Below are positions 2,290 through 58,073 of a stretch of DNA of 64,000 nt, one piece after another. The notes beneath the pieces are model-generated. The model saw only the letters and a list, made by a program, of their open reading frames with translations, did not search any database and was not told the DNA's origin. Positions within the stretch are counted from its first letter, which is position 1. Each line of letters opens with the position of its first letter. The DNA is from a virus. Made by a program: the position numbers and the translations under genes. The stretch spans positions 36,505-100,504 of IMG/VR virus record IMGVR_UViG_3300027668_000010; one strand, written 5' to 3'.

Positions 2290-4335
2290 ATGAAAGATTT
2301 TCTTAAAGAGATTATAAGGTTATGGTGGGTTGAAGCTGGAACTGCATTAAAAAACCCTAAATCAGAGGCATCCATTAAAGCACTTAGAACAATTTTAAAA
2401 GAAGACTTAGATTTTCCTAGTGAAGCCATTGAGTACATAATTGAAAATATAAAAACACCAACAACTCACTTTGCAGCAGATACCAAATCATCATCAGGAA
2501 TCAATGTTGGCAAAAATCAATCTGCAGTTTCAGCACAATTACATCCTGATTGGGATGATGACGATTTAAATGAAGATGGTAACGATTTAAATGAAGCTGA
2601 AAAGTTTTCTGCTATAAAGAACGATACTAACAATCGAACTGATTTTGGAAGTCAACAAGCTAAAGATGCAGCAATTGCATTAGGTACACATACAGATATT
2701 AATAAAGATACCGGTGATGCAGAGGAAGATGATTCTACCGAAGAAGAAACTCCCGAAGACAAATTGGCCAGAGAAAAGGCGGAAGAGAAAGCTGCTGAAC
2801 CTGAATTTGATAAAGCTGCTCAAATGGATATGATGACCGCTCTCGAAAAGGATGTGGTTAAAGCAAACGATGATAAAGTTGAAAAAGATACAGCTGGTGA
2901 GAAATCAGAACCACAAGCAAATGGGTATGTAGGTGATAAGGATAAAAGTTTAAAACAAGGTGACCCGATAGAATCTGATGTTTATCAACAAGAGTTACCA
3001 CCTGATGATAAAGAGTTTACAGAAAAGAATAAAAAGTTTGCAAACCCAATCCCACCCGAACCATATAAAATGCCGGATTTCTTAAATGATAATCCTAAAT
3101 TCCCTAAGAAATATGTTAAGGCATTAGAACGTATGATGAATACACAGCCAAAGGGTGATGCTACTAAATGGGGGCATTTTTCTGATATAGAGGGTGGAGC
3201 CGGTCAAATCTCAGCACAAGCTGGTGAGTTAATGACTATGATGGGTTCTACTATGAGTGATGATGAGTGGAATGAATTTTCTAACTCAATTCTTAAACAT
3301 GATGATGATTTCAATAAAGCTAATCCAAAACTTAAAGCTTCTAAACATAAGATAGTTGATAAAACGTGGGTAAAGGCAGCAACACAAAGTAGAAAAGCAA
3401 TTAAGGATAGATTAACTGCTCAATATGGTGAAGGTGTTGAAATTGTAGCAGGTGCGTGGGATACACAATCTGATGTAGAAGCCATGGGATTATCAGATTA
3501 TGAAAAAAACAAAGGATTTTCAACTGATATGTATCTTAAAGTAAGAAAGTCTAATGGTGAAGAAGTTTTAGATGAGGTATCATTAAAAAAATCAACTAAA
3601 GTAAACTTCCTAAATTCAGGAGCTGGTGAATTTGCAAAATGGGATAAAAACTTACCTGATGAAATTAATCAATCCGTATATAGAGATAAAGCTAGAGCTC
3701 GTAATATATCAGTTGTTAATGAAAATAGAGCTGAAATTGAAAAGTTATTAAAATCACCTGAAGGTGCATCATTAAATGCTTTACTTAAATCTAAAAAGAT
3801 GAATTTGGATGATGCATTACAGGGTAACTCTAGAGCTAAACAAAAAGTTCTATGGACTGCTATTAATGAATTAGCTAAAAACGGAAACAAAGGTGCACAA
3901 TCTACTGTAGATACTGATGATAAAGCACATAGACAGTTTCAAGCTGATTCGGTTAAAGCAATTACTGAAAATCCAAAAATGAAAGAGGGTATGTTGAATA
4001 CCATTAAAAATGAGTTTCCATTAAAAGCTGTAAGTGATGGTGAAGAAACTATGGCCATCGGACCAAACTCATTAGATAAGAAAACGATGAAAGAGATATT
4101 TGGTACTGATGATTATAGTATATTAAAAGAGAACTTAGTTGCTGAAGATGGACCACCACCATTTATTGGATATAAAATAGAAACTTCAGGTGAAGTATTC
4201 GCAATTGCAGATATTGTTATTAGAGAAGATGGACGTGGTTATGGTGGTCAATTTAAATTTGAAATGCAGTTGAATCAAAAATCATTTGCAAAACGACTGG
4301 AACAAGCACAAGCAGATGTTTACGGTGATAACTAA
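2290..4335 (+). CDS. large hypothetical protein, putative head/internal protein with acidic N-terminal region
   Basis: 681 aa ORF; MKDFLKE start, DLNE-DGN-DLNE, acidic linker. Confidence 0.55.
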   Translation: MKDFLKEIIRLWWVEAGTALKNPKSEASIKALRTILKEDLDFPSEAIEYIIENIKTPTTHFAADTKSSSGINVGKNQSAVSAQLHPDWDDDDLNEDGNDLNEAEKFSAIKNDTNNRTDFGSQQAKDAAIALGTHTDINKDTGDAEEDDSTEEETPEDKLAREKAEEKAAEPEFDKAAQMDMMTALEKDVVKANDDKVEKDTAGEKSEPQANGYVGDKDKSLKQGDPIESDVYQQELPPDDKEFTEKNKKFANPIPPEPYKMPDFLNDNPKFPKKYVKALERMMNTQPKGDATKWGHFSDIEGGAGQISAQAGELMTMMGSTMSDDEWNEFSNSILKHDDDFNKANPKLKASKHKIVDKTWVKAATQSRKAIKDRLTAQYGEGVEIVAGAWDTQSDVEAMGLSDYEKNKGFSTDMYLKVRKSNGEEVLDEVSLKKSTKVNFLNSGAGEFAKWDKNLPDEINQSVYRDKARARNISVVNENRAEIEKLLKSPEGASLNALLKSKKMNLDDALQGNSRAKQKVLWTAINELAKNGNKGAQSTVDTDDKAHRQFQADSVKAITENPKMKEGMLNTIKNEFPLKAVSDGEETMAIGPNSLDKKTMKEIFGTDDYSILKENLVAEDGPPPFIGYKIETSGEVFAIADIVIREDGRGYGGQFKFEMQLNQKSFAKRLEQAQADVYGDN

Positions 4336-4779: not shown

Positions 4780-4811
4780 TTGGTAAATCCAATTAAATGT
4801 TGTATATTTAC
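4780..4811 (+). promoter_or_regulatory. Bacteroidota-type promoter
   Basis: ttggtaaatcc...ttgtatatttac. Confidence 0.7.
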
Positions 4812-4839: not shown

Positions 4840-5229
4840 ATGGCAAATTTAAATGAAAACAGACGTTTAATGGAAGCGCAAATCAAATCATTAAGAAATA
4901 TCAACGAAGCTTTGGGGATGACCAAAGGGAAAGATAACAGACTAATGAAAGATTTAGAAAATATCATAGGTAATGAAGTTGAGTATACTACTAAAAAGAA
5001 CGGTAGAGTATCAGTTATCACATCATTTAGTGTACCTGGTGGAAAAAACAAATTGGAAGTTGAAGAAGATATGGATGGAATGTGGGTTGTAACATTGAGA
5101 GCTAAGAAAGGTATGAAAATATGGGCTAATGAGTTCGATTTTGGATTTAGTGATATCAAAGATGAAGAAACTGCAATGAAAGCTGCAATGAAAATGGCTA
5201 AAAAGCACAAAGGTGCATTCGCTTACTAA
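4840..5229 (+). CDS. hypothetical protein with LNE/LME/INE-rich N-terminus (putative internal head protein)
   Basis: MANLNE-NRRLME-AQIKSLRNINE. Confidence 0.6.
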   Translation: MANLNENRRLMEAQIKSLRNINEALGMTKGKDNRLMKDLENIIGNEVEYTTKKNGRVSVITSFSVPGGKNKLEVEEDMDGMWVVTLRAKKGMKIWANEFDFGFSDIKDEETAMKAAMKMAKKHKGAFAY

Positions 5230-43917: not shown

Positions 43918-43954
43918 TACATATTTATATCCAAACAACAATAAAGGATATATA

Positions 43955-46218: not shown

Positions 46219-46386
46219 ATGAATAGATTAAGAGAATATAGTTGGAAAGATTGGATTAACGTTCCAAAGAACAAAGAATTGTACAATTCTAATATGAATG
46301 AAGGATTACGTCAATTTCAATTAGAGAAAAATCGTAGAGATAAATTAACTCAGGTAGCTGTATTTAATCAAAAAGGATTCCAATGA
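46219..46386 (+). CDS. small hypothetical protein (55 aa, absent from ORF track)
   Basis: ATG46219-TGA46386, ATGA overlap with next gene, ATACTTAT upstream. Confidence 0.6.
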   Translation: MNRLREYSWKDWINVPKNKELYNSNMNEGLRQFQLEKNRRDKLTQVAVFNQKGFQ

Positions 46387-47174
46387 AAAAGTCAAAATTA
46401 ACAGAGTTATTAGAAGCTCTTTACATCAAGTATGGTAATAAGAATATTACAGAATCATATAAATCTCAGATAGCTCAAATTGTTAAAGAAGAGATAACAA
46501 AAGTTAGTACAATACTTAAACTCAAAGAAGATGAACAATTAGACCAAGCATTCAACGATGCAAAGCCTGTTACTGAAGAAAAAGTTTACATTGACTATCT
46601 AAATAAGAAAAAGGGATTTAAACAAGATAGGATTAAATTTAAGTCTTATGAAGATGCAGTAAAATGGGCCAATAAGAATTTTGAAAAGTTTAATCCTGAT
46701 ATGATTAAATACGAATCAGTAACAGAGGAAGCTAAAAGAGATTATAAAGATGAGTATAAGAAGTTCCAATCTTCAGACAAATCAAAGAAATACAGAGCAG
46801 AACTAAATAAGTACAATAGAGATAAAGGTACTTATGGTAATGGTGATGGTAAAGATGCATCTCACAAAGGTGGTAAGATAGTAGGTTTCGAATCTGAATC
46901 TAAGAATAGAGGAAGAGCTGAGAAAAGTAGATTGAAGAAAGAAGAAAAACTTACAGAAAATAAAGCTCGTTTTGTAAGAAATCATATGGAATTTTATCAA
47001 ATGGAAATTGATAGTCTTAAAGGCCAAATAGCATATTCTCAAGACGCATTGAGACAAAAAGATATAAAAGATTGGGAAAAGAAAGAATTTACATTAGTTT
47101 TAAAAGATACTAAACAAAGATTAAAAGATAATCTTAAAGCTTTACAACGAATAAAAAAAGTAAATAATGTCTGA
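46383..47174 (+). CDS. modular protein with [LIV]xE linkers, including an HNH-like mini-module
   Basis: NITE/PVTE/ESVTE/KLTE linkers; GDGKDASH...KNR module. Confidence 0.6.
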   Translation: MKKSKLTELLEALYIKYGNKNITESYKSQIAQIVKEEITKVSTILKLKEDEQLDQAFNDAKPVTEEKVYIDYLNKKKGFKQDRIKFKSYEDAVKWANKNFEKFNPDMIKYESVTEEAKRDYKDEYKKFQSSDKSKKYRAELNKYNRDKGTYGNGDGKDASHKGGKIVGFESESKNRGRAEKSRLKKEEKLTENKARFVRNHMEFYQMEIDSLKGQIAYSQDALRQKDIKDWEKKEFTLVLKDTKQRLKDNLKALQRIKKVNNV

Positions 47175-47424
47175 ACCAACTCAATCATTTTTATCTAAAA
47201 ATTGGCATATTCTATTATGGGCAGTCTCAGCAGTCTTTATTGCAGGTGGGTTATTTGCAGAATTTCAATATTTACAATCTGAAATAGAAACTCTTAATCA
47301 ACGTTTGAATAAAAAGATTGATGTAATAACTCATTTAGATAATAGAGTTGAAAAAATAGAGCATTGGGTAGAATACGAAACTGGTTATAAAGCAGGTATC
47401 GGTAGTAAAAGAAAAGGTAAATAA
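47167..47424 (+). CDS. TM plus coiled-coil protein
   Basis: WHILLWAVSAVFIAGGL then heptads. Confidence 0.6.
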   Translation: MSEPTQSFLSKNWHILLWAVSAVFIAGGLFAEFQYLQSEIETLNQRLNKKIDVITHLDNRVEKIEHWVEYETGYKAGIGSKRKGK

Positions 47425-48509
47425 TGCCAGTCTATAAGAGAAAAGATATGCCACAAGTGAATACTCAAAAACTGAGTAAAGCTATTGATATTGCAAAATC
47501 TAAGGTAAAGGTAACTAAAGGAATGAGTATTGCAGGGAGTCTAAAACCTTCTCAGAAAGAACTCATTAAATCTAAGGTTATTGGTATCTCAAAAAAATAC
47601 AACAAACCTACTGATATGAAACCTTTAATCATATCTAAGGATAACTACATAGTTGATGGCCATCACAGATGGGGAGCTGCAAAATTCAAATTCGGTAAAG
47701 ATGCAAAAGTTCCTACATTCACATTACACTTAAAACGAGATGAAGCAATTGAACTTTATAATGATATTGCAAGTTCATTAAATGAAGACATTACGATACC
47801 AATTAACGTAGGTGATACCGTATTAGGTGGTAAGTTCAAAAATAAAAGAATCGTTGTTAAATCAATCGGTAAGAACGAAAAAGGTGATATTACAATCAAC
47901 AACAAACCACTAATGAAATTCAGATTAGTGAATGAAAGTACAGGTGCATCAATACAATGTTCCAACTGTAATCATAGTTGGGATATTATACATAGTGATG
48001 ATAGACCATACTTTTGTCATAATTGTGGGTATGATGCACAATCACAAAAGATTGATTTAGTTGGATTAGAGGATTGGAAAAAAACACTAAAAGAAAACGT
48101 AGCACCTAATCACAATGGTAAATCAGCACCATATGGTAGTGGCTATGATGTGGTGGAAGATGCAATCAACGAAATCCCAATGGGTGATTTACAGAAGATA
48201 GATACATTCGCAGATAAGAAACTTAATCCAATGGATGTAGTACTTACAGGTAAACATTTCTTTGACCGATTAAACGACAAAAGAAACGATAAAGAGATAT
48301 CATCAGCAGAATTGATACGTTTTTTTAAACAACTTTCGAAAAAGAAGAAAGAATTCTTAGGGTTCTTAGACACCTACAATTCGGTAGTTGCAACTGATAA
48401 TAAAACCAATATCAATATACCTTTTATGAAACAAGCAAATAAAGTGATTGCTAAGACCGTAATGAGAAAGAAAGATTTCAAAACAACTGATAAAAAGTTG
48501 GATATTTAA
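47424..48509 (+). CDS. modular protein: ParB/Srx-like domain, small beta domain, Zn-ribbon, possible RNase-like domain
   Basis: PLIISKDNYIVDGHHRW; CSNC..CHNC; HFFDRLND; LNE/VNE/LKE/INE linkers. Confidence 0.65.
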   Translation: MPVYKRKDMPQVNTQKLSKAIDIAKSKVKVTKGMSIAGSLKPSQKELIKSKVIGISKKYNKPTDMKPLIISKDNYIVDGHHRWGAAKFKFGKDAKVPTFTLHLKRDEAIELYNDIASSLNEDITIPINVGDTVLGGKFKNKRIVVKSIGKNEKGDITINNKPLMKFRLVNESTGASIQCSNCNHSWDIIHSDDRPYFCHNCGYDAQSQKIDLVGLEDWKKTLKENVAPNHNGKSAPYGSGYDVVEDAINEIPMGDLQKIDTFADKKLNPMDVVLTGKHFFDRLNDKRNDKEISSAELIRFFKQLSKKKKEFLGFLDTYNSVVATDNKTNINIPFMKQANKVIAKTVMRKKDFKTTDKKLDI

Positions 48510-48528
48510 TAATAAATTCGTATATTTG
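48498..48528 (+). promoter_or_regulatory. Bacteroidota-type promoter
   Basis: ttgg...cgtatatttg. Confidence 0.55.
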
Positions 48529-48530
48529 TA

Positions 48531-49289
48531 ATGAAGCTACTAAAAGATTTAATAATAGAGGGGATGTACGATAAACTGACGGGTCAGATAAACAAAGATG
48601 TATTTAAAACTATAAAGAGTGCTATCAAAGGTAGTGGTACTGAATCTAAACCAAAGAAGTTTAAAGGTTACATGGTTAGAAAAGAACCTATGGGTACAAT
48701 GCAGGATTTATTTGCAAAAGAAACTCGTAAATTACAAGTTGGTGATTACTCAGATAATATAAGTGGTGTTGATGTTGAGGTAGAACTTAAATTAGCAGTA
48801 ACAGATGATGGTGTTGAGCCAGGTAAGTTCTTTATTGATGGGTTTGCCGAAGCTGATGAAGATTACCCAACATTGGAAGTGAATATCGGTATCCACCCTA
48901 ATGATATAAATGGAAGTATTTTCTCAAAGATACAACCAGTACTCAGAGATTTGGTAAGACATGAAATAGAACACCTAACACATGGTAAAGATTCTGCTTC
49001 CGAAAAACCTAGTAAAACGATGAGGGGTGATGATGCTATGAGACGTAAAATACAAGACAACCCTAAATTATACTACAAATACTTTTTATTACCAAAAGAG
49101 GTAGATGCTAACATACATGGATTATACTCAAAGGCTAAAACAATAAAAAAACCATATCAGAAAGTGGTTGATGATTATTTAGATTCTTTGGTTGATGATG
49201 GTGTAATTACAACTAAGAAGAGAACTGAGATTTATAATAAATGGAAAGCCCGTATTCCAAAAATTGGTGGTATTCCTAAATTAAAATGA
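48531..49289 (+). CDS. zincin-like metallopeptidase-domain protein with LIIE leader
   Basis: HEIEH plus downstream Y...PKEVDA; leader MKLLKDLIIE. Confidence 0.6.
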   Translation: MKLLKDLIIEGMYDKLTGQINKDVFKTIKSAIKGSGTESKPKKFKGYMVRKEPMGTMQDLFAKETRKLQVGDYSDNISGVDVEVELKLAVTDDGVEPGKFFIDGFAEADEDYPTLEVNIGIHPNDINGSIFSKIQPVLRDLVRHEIEHLTHGKDSASEKPSKTMRGDDAMRRKIQDNPKLYYKYFLLPKEVDANIHGLYSKAKTIKKPYQKVVDDYLDSLVDDGVITTKKRTEIYNKWKARIPKIGGIPKLK

Positions 49290-49888
49290 AGAAAAGTGAA
49301 TTTATATCAGAGGTATTCAAAGAAGAAATCCAAATGATACGTGAAGGTAAGACTCTTCGTGTGTTTGATTTCGATGATACTTTAGCAACTTCAACATCAT
49401 ACATCTATGTAAAACATAAGGATGGTAAAGAATCCAAATTAGACCCATCAGATTACGCAACTTATAACGAAAAACCTGGTGATGAATTTGATTTCAAAGA
49501 TTTCAATAGAAAACTAAACAATCCAAAGGTAATCAAAAAGAACTTCAATCTACTTCAGAGAATGTTAGATAACCCACAGAAAAAGGTTACGATTCTAACT
49601 GCTCGTAAGTTGGCATTTCCAGTAAGAAAGTATCTAAAGGATACATTTGGGATGGATGTGTATGTAGTTGCACTTGGTAGTAACAATCCTAAAGACAAAG
49701 CAGATTGGATTGAAAAGCATATTAAGAAGGGGTACAAATCAATTGCTTTCATGGATGACAGTAAAAAGAATATCCAAGCGGTGGATGCACTCAAATCCAA
49801 ATACCCCAATGTTCAAATAAAAACCAAATGGGTAACAGAGGGTATCGAAGAAGATGTTCAGAAATATGTTAACAAAATCCTCAAATAA
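49286..49888 (+). CDS. HAD-superfamily phosphatase with E-terminated leader
   Basis: FDFDDTL, ILTAR, K, FMDDS..N. Confidence 0.8.
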   Translation: MKKSEFISEVFKEEIQMIREGKTLRVFDFDDTLATSTSYIYVKHKDGKESKLDPSDYATYNEKPGDEFDFKDFNRKLNNPKVIKKNFNLLQRMLDNPQKKVTILTARKLAFPVRKYLKDTFGMDVYVVALGSNNPKDKADWIEKHIKKGYKSIAFMDDSKKNIQAVDALKSKYPNVQIKTKWVTEGIEEDVQKYVNKILK

Positions 49889-49985
49889 TTCACAATAATC
49901 AGAGATATGTTAGGATTATTTAAATAAAAGTTGTATATTTGTAGTTAATGAAGTTCACTAAATTTAAAACCATATTTATTATCAA

Positions 49986-50225
49986 ATGAATTACGAAAAG
50001 AAAGTAATGCAGAACACCTACGAAATCTTAACAAATGAGGGTTTCGAATGGACTAATGAATTTAGTAACTCAATGAAATTAAAAATGATTGAGTTATTAT
50101 TAGAGTATTTTACAGATATTGAACACTATGAAAAATGTGCTAAATTGAAACCAATACTCAATAAATTGGAGAATAACAATGAAAATAGTAGTGAAATCAT
50201 TATCACCGGAAGTAACAACAGTTAA
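49986..50225 (+). CDS. small protein with UVR-like motif
   Basis: EYF..IEHYEKCAKLK. Confidence 0.55.
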   Translation: MNYEKKVMQNTYEILTNEGFEWTNEFSNSMKLKMIELLLEYFTDIEHYEKCAKLKPILNKLENNNENSSEIIITGSNNS

Positions 50226-50340
50226 AGAGTGGATAGTATACGTTATGAGTGAAACAGACCAATCAATAGAAGCATCTATATGTGGAATTGATAGTTTAGT
50301 TGCAACTATAACAGATTTAGCACTGAAATACAAACTTTAA
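50179..50340 (+). CDS. small hypothetical protein (53 aa, absent from ORF track)
   Basis: ATG50179-TAA50340. Confidence 0.45.
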   Translation: MKIVVKSLSPEVTTVKEWIVYVMSETDQSIEASICGIDSLVATITDLALKYKL

Positions 50341-50352
50341 ACATATTTATAT

Positions 50353-50574
50353 ATGAAATTATATATTTTAAATGATGATATTAATACATTTGAGCATGTA
50401 GTAGATTGCATTCAAAAGTATTTAAATTATCCGTATATGCAAAGTGTATCAATTTCCCACATCGTAAATGATAATGGGGAATGTTTGGTTAAACAGACTG
50501 ATGATGAAGAGTTGATACAAAATGTATATGAAAATTTAGTTAAAGACGGTTTAAACTTACGAATAGAGAATTAA
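50353..50574 (+). CDS. clpS: ClpS-like adaptor
   Basis: ILNDDINTFEHVV, IVNDNG.C.VK. Confidence 0.75.
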   Translation: MKLYILNDDINTFEHVVDCIQKYLNYPYMQSVSISHIVNDNGECLVKQTDDEELIQNVYENLVKDGLNLRIEN

Positions 50575-50575
50575 T

Positions 50576-50743
50576 ATGAGCAAATCAAAAGGATTAGGTG
50601 ATGATATTAAAAAAATAACATCAGCCACTAAATTAGATATAATTGCAGAAAAAATTGCAACAACAATTGGTAAAAAAGACTGTGGTTGCAGTAAACGCCA
50701 AGAGAGTCTTAATAAAATGTTCCCATACGGAGATAAGAAATGA
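50576..50743 (+). CDS. small phage protein (55 aa, GLGD...DCGC..RQE.LN type; absent from ORF track)
   Basis: ATG50576-TGA50743, ATGA overlap with next gene. Confidence 0.65.
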   Translation: MSKSKGLGDDIKKITSATKLDIIAEKIATTIGKKDCGCSKRQESLNKMFPYGDKK

Positions 50744-52818
50744 ATTTAAAAGAATTTATACAAACGGAAATAAAATCACAAATGAGTGAATCCAAAGATA
50801 TGACATTTGTTGATTATCTTAAAGTGTTAGATGCTAAGTTTTTAGATGCTATGAAAGCAGTTCGTGGAGACAATGGAAGTGATGCTGCAATTACACCAAC
50901 TAGAGGTGATATACTACAAAACTTTACATTATTCAGAAATTACTTATCTGCTTTAACTAAGAAATATAAAGGTGATAAGACTAAACTTAGATTTATATCA
51001 GAACACACTAACAAATTCAATGAAACAATAGAATCGGTAGTTAACGAAGCTAAAAAGAAATTACCAAACTTTAAAAAAATTCCATCGTGGGCTAAGTATG
51101 TAGCTCAATCATCTGATGGTGAGTGGACTTGGTATGAAGATACACCAACGATGATAAAATTCAAAGATGGTTCAGGTGGTGCTTGGAAGCAAGATGGTAA
51201 CCAAACTTATACTGGTGTAAAAACTAATGGTAAGGATTGGGATAAGATACCTACATACTATAATGTAAAGAATGGAGTAATTACCGAATCAATCAACGAA
51301 GAACAGATAGATGAGAAAAGTAGATTGAAGAAAGAAGCTTCATTCAGACCAAACTCAGGTACTATGAGTGGTGGAACACATAATCTTGATAATCGCAAAT
51401 ACAAATTAAACAGAGATGTTACTGGTGTTAGAATTGGTGATTATGTTGGAATTACATTACCCAAAGGTACTATTATATATAATATATCAGGTGGGTTATT
51501 CGCAGACCATATATCATTAAAAAAATATGCTGACCGTAATAGAATCTATTTTAATAAACCTACATTTAAAGGAATATCAATCACAAGAGAAAAAAGTACT
51601 TTAAACTCTATTGAAACAAATAGTAAAATATTAGAATCAATAGTTAACGAAGGTGATGATTTTAATATGGTATCTGCTAAATTTAAAGATGCACTTGATG
51701 ATGCATCATCACTATCTACAAAATCCGTAAAACTATTAATAAAGAAGTTTAAGGAAGAATCACCTAAAGCTGCAATGGATTATGCAAAGCAGGAATTTGG
51801 ATGGATGATGAAAGAGGGTAGCTCTAAGTTTAAAGAATCGGTAACAAACGAAGAACAGATAGATGAGAAACTAATCACATTCTCAAACAGAGCACCTTAT
51901 GGACAGATAGTGTTTATGGCAGGTGGAGCTGGTAGTGGTAAAGGATTCGCAATTGATAACTTCATAGATTCAGCTGGATTCAAAGTAAGAGATGTTGATG
52001 ATATGAAAAAAGCAGTTGGGAAATTAAACCAATTAGGTAAATTCTCAGTTGATAAGTGGTATAAAAAATATGGTAAGACATTATCAGATAAATCTAAGGG
52101 TAATGGGTTATCACCTAAAGCTCACGTTGAAGAGTTTGTATTAGGTAAGGGAATGAGTATTTCAGATATCTCAAAAGATTTAAAGAATCCTAACAATGTA
52201 GCATCACTACATTATATCGTAGACTCTATGGGATTAAAAGATAAGTGGTTAATTAATATGTTAAGTGGTAAAACAAACAAAGAAACTTTACCAAACCTAT
52301 TGTTTGATATTACTGCTAAAAAAGTATCATCAATTACAGATGTTATCAAACCATTAATCGCCAATGGATATGATTCTAAAAACGTTCACCTTATTTGGGT
52401 ACTTAAAAATTATCATGCAGCAGTTGAAGCTAATAAAGAAAGAGCAAGAGTTGTACCAAGTGATATTTTACTACAAACACATGAAGGTGCTACTAAAACT
52501 ATGTGGCAAGTTCTAACCCAAATACAACCAAAAGGATTAAATGGTAGAATTGATGTTATTTTAAATAATAATAAATTCACAGCTGCCTTTGTTGATTCAA
52601 ATGGTAAGGAAATCCAAGTAGAACCTAACCAAATGAACAAACTTAAAAAAGCACAACCAGTTGTTAGTGGATTCAAATCACTTCCTATCAAAAAACAAGG
52701 TGGTGGTGTAATTCCTGAAACACAATGGCAAGGTATACTCAAAGGTTGGATTCTATCAAATACACCAAATACAATTGATTTTGAAGAATTAGAAGAACCA
52801 CCAAAGGATAAAGAGTAA
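50740..52818 (+). CDS. modular polyprotein ending in a zeta-toxin-like P-loop kinase
   Basis: linkers ESVVNE, ESINEEQIDE, ESIVNE, ESVTNEEQIDE; MAGGAGSGK, LLFD, NKERARVV. Confidence 0.75.
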   Translation: MNLKEFIQTEIKSQMSESKDMTFVDYLKVLDAKFLDAMKAVRGDNGSDAAITPTRGDILQNFTLFRNYLSALTKKYKGDKTKLRFISEHTNKFNETIESVVNEAKKKLPNFKKIPSWAKYVAQSSDGEWTWYEDTPTMIKFKDGSGGAWKQDGNQTYTGVKTNGKDWDKIPTYYNVKNGVITESINEEQIDEKSRLKKEASFRPNSGTMSGGTHNLDNRKYKLNRDVTGVRIGDYVGITLPKGTIIYNISGGLFADHISLKKYADRNRIYFNKPTFKGISITREKSTLNSIETNSKILESIVNEGDDFNMVSAKFKDALDDASSLSTKSVKLLIKKFKEESPKAAMDYAKQEFGWMMKEGSSKFKESVTNEEQIDEKLITFSNRAPYGQIVFMAGGAGSGKGFAIDNFIDSAGFKVRDVDDMKKAVGKLNQLGKFSVDKWYKKYGKTLSDKSKGNGLSPKAHVEEFVLGKGMSISDISKDLKNPNNVASLHYIVDSMGLKDKWLINMLSGKTNKETLPNLLFDITAKKVSSITDVIKPLIANGYDSKNVHLIWVLKNYHAAVEANKERARVVPSDILLQTHEGATKTMWQVLTQIQPKGLNGRIDVILNNNKFTAAFVDSNGKEIQVEPNQMNKLKKAQPVVSGFKSLPIKKQGGGVIPETQWQGILKGWILSNTPNTIDFEELEEPPKDKE
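51295..51870 (+). repeat. 24-bp exact direct repeat in linker DNA (51295-51318, 51847-51870)
   Basis: aacgaagaacagatagatgagaaa twice. Confidence 0.9.
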
Positions 52819-53136: not shown

Positions 53137-53739
53137 ATGAGTAAGAAAATCAAATTAGTAATCGAAGGTACAGAGTATCAACTTCCAATTTCAGCAGCAC
53201 GATTGAAAGGGGATTGTAAATGGAATGATGAAACCCACATCTATATGGGTGCAAAAAATACCGCATCAATCATCAAACAATATGTAAAGAAATTCTTTCC
53301 AGAAATTAAGGTTTGGAGTAAATCCAATGTATATAGTGGTGGTTCATCAGTTGATGTAAATATATCTAATTCAGATGGTTCGGAAGTCAATTACAATATA
53401 TACCAACAAATTCAGAGTTTCTCTAATAAGTTCAAAGCAGGTTCGTTCAATGGTATGGAAGATATCTATGAGTATAAGGAAGGTACAATAACTACCGATA
53501 ACAATACTCCACTAAAATATTTCCCATCTTATGTGTTTTGTAAGAACGCTCCAAAGTGGGGAACTGTTGAGTATTGGATGAATGAATACAGAGAGTTCAA
53601 AAATATGACTTCTGAAAATTCAAACTATGATTCTTATATGGCTGCAGTTAATAAAGCTGGTGGCTGGTTGAATATGAACAAAGCCTATATGAGTGATAAA
53701 GAATATAGTATGGTAGCAAAAACCTTAACATTAAATTAA
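53137..53739 (+). CDS. LPD29-like (polyvalent-protein-associated) domain protein
   Basis: KKFFPEIK, YSGGSSVDV, GSFNGMEDIYEY. Confidence 0.6.
   Translation: MSKKIKLVIEGTEYQLPISAARLKGDCKWNDETHIYMGAKNTASIIKQYVKKFFPEIKVWSKSNVYSGGSSVDVNISNSDGSEVNYNIYQQIQSFSNKFKAGSFNGMEDIYEYKEGTITTDNNTPLKYFPSYVFCKNAPKWGTVEYWMNEYREFKNMTSENSNYDSYMAAVNKAGGWLNMNKAYMSDKEYSMVAKTLTLN

Positions 53740-56450: not shown

Positions 56451-58073
<1,623 letters not shown>

Follow-up and report, generated by a model that had tools for sequence, protein, structure and literature searches.

The window analysed here, the final 64 kb (64,000 nucleotides) of the 100.5-kb IMG/VR record IMGVR_UViG_3300027668_000010, contains between positions 46,383 and 52,818 a block of open reading frames (ORFs) in which unrelated small protein modules are chained by stereotyped peptide joints. 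The joints exist, are conserved as peptides, mark domain borders and are points of exchange, and the clade to which this phage belongs has a prohead protease together with a matching site in its capsid protein. We consider it rather probable, with room for doubt, that ORFs 50740, 46383 and 47424, and probably also ORFs 48531, 49286 and 53137, encode cargo precursors of the T4 prohead type, which would be cut by a gp21-like protease and injected into the host.

A reading of the sequence alone had described seven ORFs, these among them, as sharing one layout of leader, small modules and linkers. All the leader and joint strings that it quoted are present in the ORFs named, and its overall interpretation is partly supported: the layout holds for ORFs 50740, 46383 and 47424, whereas ORFs 48531 and 49286 are single-module and ORFs 2290 and 4840 display little beyond an N-terminal [LIV]xE.

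ORF 50740 and the joint motif

ORF 50740 (50,740–52,818, + strand; 692 amino acids) consists of a leader (residues 1–17) and five modules, which are helical (18–97), beta-rich (104–182), a third module (195–298), again helical (305–365) and a P-loop kinase (377–692), and which are found singly, in other orders and in other genes across more than 100 relatives. The leader, MNLKEFIQTEIKSQMSE (50,740–50,790, + strand), resembles the T4 capsid targeting sequence (CTS); it opens MNLKEFIQTE, reaching I-Q-T-E first and M-S-E at residue 17, and its counterpart in relatives is MNLREFIQSEIKSQLSESVNE/A, where the slash follows the Glu after which cleavage is proposed. Four linkers on the + strand separate the modules, namely ESVVNE/A (linker 1, residues 98–103; 51,031–51,048), ESINEEQIDE/K (linker 2, 183–192; 51,286–51,315), ESIVNE/G (linker 3, 299–304; 51,634–51,651) and ESVTNEEQIDE/K (linker 4, 366–376; 51,835–51,867), the last of which precedes the kinase module. 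At that border all 20 of 20 distinct contexts read [IL]DE ahead of KLITF. Linkers 2 and 4 have in common the 24-base string AACGAAGAACAGATAGATGAGAAA (51,301–51,324 and 51,847–51,870), the footprint of a recent duplication or gene conversion between joints. A scan of viral contigs with the leader as a DNA pattern was set aside, having retrieved mostly an unrelated family of ~200 amino acids on high-GC contigs, starting MNFKEFIQKL, and only ~7 true relatives.

The motif is strongly concentrated. Across the whole 100-kb record (31,358 residues) ES[IVL]x0-1[NST]E occurs seven times against 0.8 expected from composition, and ORF 50740 itself holds four joints of the form ES[IV]x0-1NE (at 98, 183, 299 and 366) where 0.018 would be expected (Poisson P about 4e-9). 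One further copy lies in ORF 46383 and one in a small ORF among the head genes (genome positions 532–891), and there are none in the replication or glycosylation genes of this genome. The sequence-only reading had proposed a comparison with replication proteins: the ES-type motif is absent from them, and the generic [LIV]xE has an observed/expected ratio of 1.23 within the modules against 1.17 in replication proteins.

When residues 1–376 of ORF 50740 were used as a query, 317 metagenomic proteins of 380–1,211 residues were retrieved, each covering only one quarter to one half of the query. In an unbiased count of 5-mers in the best 120 of these relatives ESVNE ranks first, with 207 copies in 98 proteins (~2,400 times expectation), and it is the sole top 5-mer repeated within single proteins. 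The residue that follows is A, G or S in 170 of the 207 copies, and successive ESVNE joints lie at least 52 amino acids apart, with a median spacing of 84. The joints of the window depart from this consensus by a single residue, and a search of this genome for the DNA pattern of exact ESVNE found none, its own joints carrying one residue more.

Borders can also be anchored on conserved module starts, independently of any linker definition. At ~159 distinct contexts defined in this way a residue other than Glu precedes the border in a few cases only, and L, I or V predominates at P3 (VNE, LKE, LNE, VKE, INE, IDE, LDE, LSE). The same rule emerges from the alignment of 59 homologues of ORF 47424, in which E121 and E250 are invariant, P3 is mostly L or I and occasionally V, and P2 is variable; extra cassettes are inserted at the E121 and E250 borders only, each bringing its own ...xE. 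At the DNA level ES[VI]NE has at least eight spellings across genomes. In the window's own record (G000; G001, G002, G003, G005, L001, L002 and L031 denote related metagenomic genomes or contigs) AAC-GAA is nevertheless used in 5 of 5 joints, though AAC makes up 33% of Asn codons, and G005 holds one joint 15-mer in five identical copies. The constraint on the joints thus appears to be a peptide rule with an additional DNA-level signal, which would be compatible with roles both as cut site and as recombination joint, and the joints probably serve also as short DNA homologies that favour in-frame exchange of modules.

Domains and their borders in ORF 47424 and ORF 46383

ORF 47424 (47,424–48,509, + strand; 361 amino acids, without a leader) was analysed by alignment, AlphaFold2 (AF2) and Foldseek. 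In order it comprises a ParB-N domain (residues 1–120), SLNE-121, a small beta module (122–167), LVNE-171, a Zn ribbon, TLKE-224, AINE-250 and a C-terminal module (251–361), and in its 361 residues [LIVM]xE is found only at these four joints and at VVE-245. The AF2 model gives a predicted local distance difference test score (pLDDT) of 76–96 for residues 1–120, falling below 50 at 122–125, directly after SLNE-121, with a second dip at 164–175, around LVNE-171. That linkers coincide with domain borders, as had been proposed, is therefore seen at the end of the ParB domain of ORF 47424. The model of ORF 50740 is poor in this respect: for the whole protein AF2 was supplied with a MAFFT alignment of shuffled relatives, and the result (mean pLDDT 49) is unfit for placing linkers 1–4 or for fold searches, with secondary-structure class shifting at the joints from helical to beta, unmodelled, helical and alpha/beta.

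The domain identities suggested from sequence alone fared unevenly. The N-terminal domain of ORF 47424 is ParB N-terminal/Srx-like (Foldseek matches to ParB, Noc and Srx), and the HAD module of ORF 49286 (DxDxT motif, DUF2608, phrog_415) and the P-loop kinase module (Walker A; phrog_5268 at 1e-43; a weak Zeta_toxin match at 0.0018, below the Pfam cut-off) also have motif and family matches. For the Zn ribbon of ORF 47424 there are weak Pfam matches only, the HExxH motif is present in a protein that matched no family, and no search supports an HNH-like module. Among 50 members of the module pool only Zeta_toxin, DUF5824, UPF0227 and RuvB_C were matched in Pfam, most modules having no Pfam family, large polyvalent protein associated domains (LPD) included.

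ORF 46383 (46,383–47,174, + strand; 263 amino acids) opens with the leader MKKSKLTELLE and has joints at NITE-24, PVTE-65, ESVTE-115 and KLTE-192. Its two PHROG matches cover residues 116–183, directly after ESVTE-115, and 200–257, shortly after KLTE-192.

Module exchange at the joints

The modules of ORF 46383 sit within ORF 50740-type polyproteins of other phages, as do the ParB and Zn-ribbon modules of ORF 47424, and these genes therefore share one pool of modules. The swapping of payloads at linkers, which had been put forward from the sequence, is confirmed by gain, loss and reordering at joints across relatives, in the alignment and in metagenome contigs. In L001, which is 88% identical, module 1 is joined to the kinase and modules 2–4 are gone, the junction lying inside the linker (ESVINS-VNEEQLDE); in other relatives the modules of ORF 50740 are in reversed order, or the kinase comes first. 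High-scoring segment pairs with identities of 75% or more end within 8 amino acids of a joint in 56% of cases and start there in 27%, compared to 7% of random positions, figures which are an effect size without a P value because the pairs are not independent.

The same junctions are found in assembled environmental sequence. A marine-metagenome contig joins position 50,792 (leader end) directly to 51,846 (linker 4), a contig from an RNA-library run (X15, recorded as freshwater) joins 51,039 (linker 1) to 51,846, and contigs of three studies diverge precisely at 46,728, the first base past ESVTE of ORF 46383. Marine metagenomes of several studies hold DNA near-identical to that of the window, and a megablast search of the interval against cultured phages gave no match. 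Contigs from RNA libraries, at ~90–95% identity, span most of the interval; they are silent on the timing of transcription, and carry-over of DNA is possible.

Leaders and linkers in standalone homologues

The kinase module (377–692) also exists as a standalone protein of ~280 residues in 214 cultured phage records, mostly of Straboviridae, including RB16 (RB16p227), KP15 (KP15_200), Cronobacter phage leE and Aeromonas phage 65. These proteins start MKSFKDFVSLDE/ALITFGG in RB16, MKSFKQFTESTLTE/ALITFGG in KP15 and MKKFSEFIKLEE/KLMVFG in Aeromonas phage 65, with T4 CTS-like leaders that end where the window reads ...EEQIDE/KLITFSN. About 35 bases ahead of the kinase start, RB16, KP15 and leE have an ATAAATA box similar to the late promoter of T4, and in leE and Aeromonas phage 65 there is a hoc-like gene near the kinase gene. 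Modules of the pool are thus carried as single CTS-led genes in T4-like phages of E. coli and Klebsiella. Short standalone versions of modules 2 and 3 have a leader ending ...ITE/G, ...ESVNE/A or ...ESVEE/A, or start at the border itself, and the leader of ORF 49286 has as its counterpart in L002 an internal joint, YMNLDE/LISDVFVDE/IRMLSE/G. These correspondences indicate that leader and linker are equivalent. A cultured carrier of the chained arrangement exists in Flavobacterium phage immuto, whose gp079 (YP_010114604.1; 842 amino acids) has the leader MKKLIRIVE/A and the joints ESVNE/G and ESLNE/D.

Head genes and the prohead protease

The phage, uncultured and marine, is T4-like and belongs to a far-T4 clade related to Straboviridae: the first 36 kb of the record, upstream of the window, hold T4-type structural genes, among them an acidic gp22-like scaffold and a gp23-like major capsid protein. 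The cultured phages nearest to it by capsid protein are Microcystis phage Mel-JY01 (60% identity) and Flavobacterium phage vB_FspM_immuto (56%); matches to this protein extend to 2,281 phage records, in large part of T4-like phages and cyanophages. The genes of the window lie nearly all on the + strand, at a GC content of ~32%; to judge by their N-terminal sequences, some of the listed ORFs resemble DNA polymerase, clamp, clamp loader and ribonucleotide reductase.

The gp21-like protease that the sequence-only reading expected somewhere in the genome is not on this record and is found in relatives: profile searches identified PF03420 proteases in G003 (E 6e-38; L014:1474-2100) and G002, and in immuto and Mel-JY01 a prohead protease is annotated beside the scaffold and capsid genes. 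In G003 the gene directly after the protease encodes a polyprotein of 606 residues with the leader MKLTNLLNLNE/A. The record G000 starts inside the homologue of this gene, which is why the protease is missing from it. Modules of the ORF 50740 pool recur in the head-cluster polyprotein, whose module order differs between G003 and G001, and the small head-cluster ORF at genome positions 532–891 contains ESVVNE/A. The capsid proteins of five clade members carry [LI][VI]xE/A at residues 57–61, ~24–30 residues before the conserved block WAGVALPLVRR, a position which presumably corresponds to the maturation site of T4 gp23.

Both ends of the 169-kb G001 (G001:C1:92-106 and 169240-169254) fall within ORFs and close to an ESVNE joint, at a distance of a few codons, and that genome too lacks the protease gene; repeated joints and modules probably break assemblies at the head-cluster polyprotein. 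Between the small head-cluster proteins and the scaffold gene, outside the window, an ORF of 84 amino acids (G000 970–1224, L062:970-1224) resembles ribosomal protein bS21, and Mel-JY01 has RpsU annotated there.

Promoter context

The box ATATTTATA precedes eight structural genes and occurs in 16 copies on the + strand and 3 on the – strand; we infer that it is a late promoter. One copy (43,921–43,929, + strand) heads the + strand gene run that reaches ORFs 46383 and 47424, and another (50,343–50,351, + strand) lies 397 bases ahead of ORF 50740. Replication genes are preceded by a Bacteroidota-type box, GTATATTT(A/G), which also stands before ORFs 48531, 49986, 53137 and 4840; sigma-A-like promoter-like boxes stand at 48,519 before ORF 48531 and at 4,801 before ORF 4840. 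From the distribution of the two boxes, the strongest members of the proposed system lie behind the late-like box and the single-module proteins do not.

In the general form (T/C)GTATATT(T/A)(G/A) the second box is found 29 times on the + strand and once on the – strand, preceding replication genes and many small genes, and fits the Bacteroidota –7 element TAnnTTTG. Its sites in the window include 4,801, 5,281, 5,501, 5,714, 8,742, 14,747, 17,316, 18,076, 22,598, 22,892, 48,519, 49,932, 53,072, 53,771, 54,776 and 59,568. This –7-like box hints at a Bacteroidota host. A homologue of ORF 47424 with 554 amino acids (P0138) is filed in NCBI under a metagenome-assembled genome of Vicingaceae (Flavobacteriales), which may point to the host or reflect the mis-binning of a phage contig.

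Other genes of the block

ORF 48531 (48,531–49,289, + strand; 252 amino acids) is a single-module protein with the leader MKLLKDLIIE/G and the HExxH sequence HEIEH. At residues 8–10 [IL][IVL]E/[GS] is kept in 7 of the 8 orthologues listed, the remaining one having been called from an internal start. The protein is conserved, no shuffling was seen among relatives, and no peptidase family was matched significantly in Pfam, PHROG or Atlas searches, the Atlas leads (LPD23 and SprT-like) having low scores of 0.85–0.87. It could be cargo or a processing enzyme.

ORF 49286 (49,286–49,888, + strand; 200 amino acids) encodes a HAD-type phosphatase (Pfam DUF2608, phrog_415) with the leader MKKSEFISE/VFKEEIQMIRE/G. 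Its HAD module forms the C-terminal part of proteins of 542–553 amino acids in L002 (L002:5599-7260) and L031 (complement 2621–993), where it is preceded by a part of ~350 amino acids which, from its motifs (GGAVRD...DFD), we take to resemble a CCA-adding or poly(A) nucleotidyltransferase. This fusion, together with the P-loop kinase, suggests that RNA or tRNA repair is among the functions of the cargo set. In three marine metagenomes summed contig depth is raised over 49,393–49,822, part of the HAD gene, and over 46,598–47,027 (ORF 46383 residues ~72–215), reaching 20–50-fold over the latter in two runs, so that the modules in these stretches are common to much more abundant phages.

ORF 53137 (53,137–53,739, + strand; 200 amino acids), a possible further member, has the leader MSKKIKLVIE/G and matches PF18847, large polyvalent protein associated domain 29 (LPD29; E 6.7e-8); it is syntenic in relatives, with two paralogues in G001. 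Two other ORFs named in the sequence-only reading are weak candidates: ORF 2290 (2,290–4,335, + strand; 681 amino acids), which is conserved in G001 and G003 at residues 1–163 only and keeps F-L-x-E at residues 4–7 in relatives, and ORF 4840 (4,840–5,229, + strand; 129 amino acids). At 56,460–58,073 an ORF of 537 amino acids resembles a phage-encoded GroEL-type chaperonin.

A model of capsid loading and its alternatives

T4 gp21 and its relatives in giant phages cleave after Glu at a three-residue motif (PMC5694885, PMC9026906), and the 10-residue capsid targeting sequence of T4, which gp21 removes, loads even foreign proteins into the head, while changing its Glu to Asp stops the processing (PMC9026906). 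Targeting to the head, cleavage, retention in the head and injection are the four steps that we infer for the proteins described here. A short N-terminal leader, CTS-like, would carry the chain into the assembling scaffold core, where a gp21-type prohead protease would cleave after Glu in joints of the form [LIV]-x-E/[A/G/S], canonically ESVNE in relatives and here ESVVNE, ESIVNE, EEQIDE, SLNE, LVNE and AINE. Cleavage would free modules of 50–320 residues, including a ParB-type nuclease-like domain, a Zn ribbon, a Zeta/PNK-like P-loop kinase, a HAD phosphatase and several modules without an assigned identity, and these would be retained in the head and pass into the host together with the DNA. 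A further proposal, for which we would put the chances at slightly short of even, is that this amounts to plug-and-play loading of the capsid: one leader loads a string of effectors, and the joint is at once the cut site of the protease and a point of in-frame recombination. With a joint in this dual role, marine phages could therefore recombine their kit of injected enzymes module by module.

Several observations weigh against cargo precursors. No prohead protease was found by PF03420 search of the 100-kb record, which is estimated to be ~53% complete, and the literature search found no usable virion proteome for any relative, Slopekvirus included. The leader of ORF 50740 ends in I-Q-T-E, a departure from strict I-x-E, and ORF 47424 has no leader at all. 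The leaders ending in E that had been described from the sequence are present in ORFs 46383, 48531, 49286 and 53137 and conserved in orthologues, but across the genome an [LIV]xE end at residues 6–14 is no commoner than chance would give (15 of 123 ORFs; about 11% expected), so that the case for the leaders, weak on this count, depends on other evidence. The poor AF2 model of ORF 50740 puts ESVVNE and ESIVNE at predicted helix ends. ORFs 48531 and 49286 are conserved single-module proteins and weaker examples on that account; together with ORFs 53137 and 4840 they stand behind host-type sigma-A-like promoters and not the late-like box. In the comparison with relatives ORF 2290 gave neither ESVNE-type joints nor shared modules, and ORF 4840 has no homologues among them. 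The kinase and HAD phosphatase could equally be a pair of ordinary cytoplasmic RNA-repair enzymes. Finally, depletion of [LIV]xE within modules, expected under selection against internal cutting, was not seen, and the specificity of cutting would therefore have to come from accessibility. T4 gp23 also retains uncut internal sites, and for this reason we take the last point as neither for nor against the model.

The absence of depletion is equally what would be expected if the chains were never cut, being multidomain cytoplasmic proteins of the polyvalent type in which the joints are flexible linkers and short in-frame recombination homologies and no protease is involved. Several of the genes have early-type promoters, and the uniformity of the joint DNA goes beyond what codon bias would produce, as seen in the invariant AAC-GAA of G000, the five copies of the G005 15-mer and the 24 bases common to linkers 2 and 4. 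We nevertheless regard uncut proteins as unlikely, at perhaps one chance in five, since recombination alone leaves the invariant Glu and the L, I or V at P3 unexplained when P2 and the DNA spelling vary freely. Nor does this explanation account for the preference for A, G or S after the Glu, for the motif in head-cluster proteins beside the protease gene, or for the CTS-like leaders of standalone homologues, which end at the same border.

If on the other hand the joints are cut, the products need not be cargo. They could be core or scaffold parts of the prohead whose fragments aid assembly and exit before DNA packaging, like T4 gp22, gp67 and gp68; T4 core proteins are indeed cut into several fragments that leave the head (PMC9026906), G003, G001 and G000 have one polyprotein gene placed between those of the protease and the scaffold, and many of the modules are small (median spacing 84 amino acids) and without recognisable function. 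This we think improbable, as enzyme-like modules (ParB-type, P-loop kinase, HAD phosphatase and the LPD29 neighbour) would be pointless in a disposable scaffold, a separate acidic gp22-like scaffold protein is already present, and rapid combinatorial turnover of modules better suits an arms race than a structural role. A different enzyme might also do the cutting, for instance the HExxH protein ORF 48531, which is the one unshuffled, always-present member of the block and would parallel the metallopeptidases embedded in polyvalent proteins, for which zincin-type self-processing has been proposed (Iyer et al. 2017, PMC5512222). Its nearest named Atlas clusters, LPD23 and SprT-like, were reached at low scores only, it has no significant match to any peptidase family, and the joint rule of [LIV]xE followed by a small residue is the documented rule of gp21-type proteases and recurs at the predicted capsid maturation site of the clade; we give this possibility even less credence than the scaffold. 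Each of these three explanations accounts for less of the data than do cargo precursors cut by the head protease.

If the joints are cut and the pieces packaged, the arrangement would be a general device for diversifying the proteins that are injected ahead of the phage genome, and the injected modules would likely be counter-defence tools of the first minute of infection. The capsid-targeting principle of T4 would then extend from single proteins to exchangeable polyproteins, and hundreds of marine phage proteins without an assigned function would gain a location and a timing; the two families that were sampled number 317 and 656 members. The natural linkers and leaders would be ready for use in loading foreign proteins into capsids, and the homologues in RB16, RB43 and KP15 make the idea testable in laboratory phages.

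Comparison with known systems

Full-text searches of the literature found no description of phage polyproteins jointed by ESVNE, and three systems are similar in part. With the T4 internal proteins IPI, IPII, IPIII and Alt the proteins described here share, in several of the ORFs, a leader that ends in hydrophobic-x-Glu (MNLKEFIQTE, MKKSEFISE and MKLLKDLIIE, compared to MKTYQEFIAE in T4), a gp21-family protease in the clade, genes outside the main structural cluster and payloads that are hypervariable among relatives. Pfam and PHROG searches gave no match of these proteins to IPI, IPII, IPIII or Alt, the resemblance being confined to the leader. The T4 proteins are moreover single and small with one leader cleavage, whereas here up to five modules, and more in relatives, stand behind one leader, with stereotyped internal joints and modules that move between genes.

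Polyvalent proteins likewise bring together many unrelated conflict-type domains in one phage polypeptide, with extensive mosaicism and proposed delivery with the DNA (PMC5512222), and a ParB-like domain, a Zeta-toxin-like kinase and LPD29 have counterparts here, the kinase by a weak match and LPD29 in the neighbouring ORF 53137 only. ORF 50740 with five modules and ORF 47424 with four to five are chains of this kind, the modules being non-homologous and recombining independently. Polyvalent proteins differ in that they are mostly very large, have no described repeated cleavable linker and, in the cases for which processing has been suggested, would be cut by an embedded zincin peptidase (PMC5512222); no MuF or other typical anchor domain and no MPTase-PolyVal was found here in Pfam searches.

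In the giant phages phiKZ, 201phi2-1 and SPN3US head-internal proteins are cut after Glu at a three-residue motif, A-x-E or S/A/G-x-E, some of them at multiple sites, and form families of paralogues, and the leader of SPN3US gp53 and gp54 contains ...ARESVE (PMC5694885). Cleavage in those phages mainly removes long propeptides from single proteins, with A, S or G at P3 where L, I or V is found here, and neither unrelated modules arranged as beads on a string nor a cut site that doubles as an exchange joint has been described in them. What appears to distinguish the present proteins from all three systems is the chaining of unrelated modules behind one leader by a stereotyped, putatively cleavable joint that is also the point of exchange.

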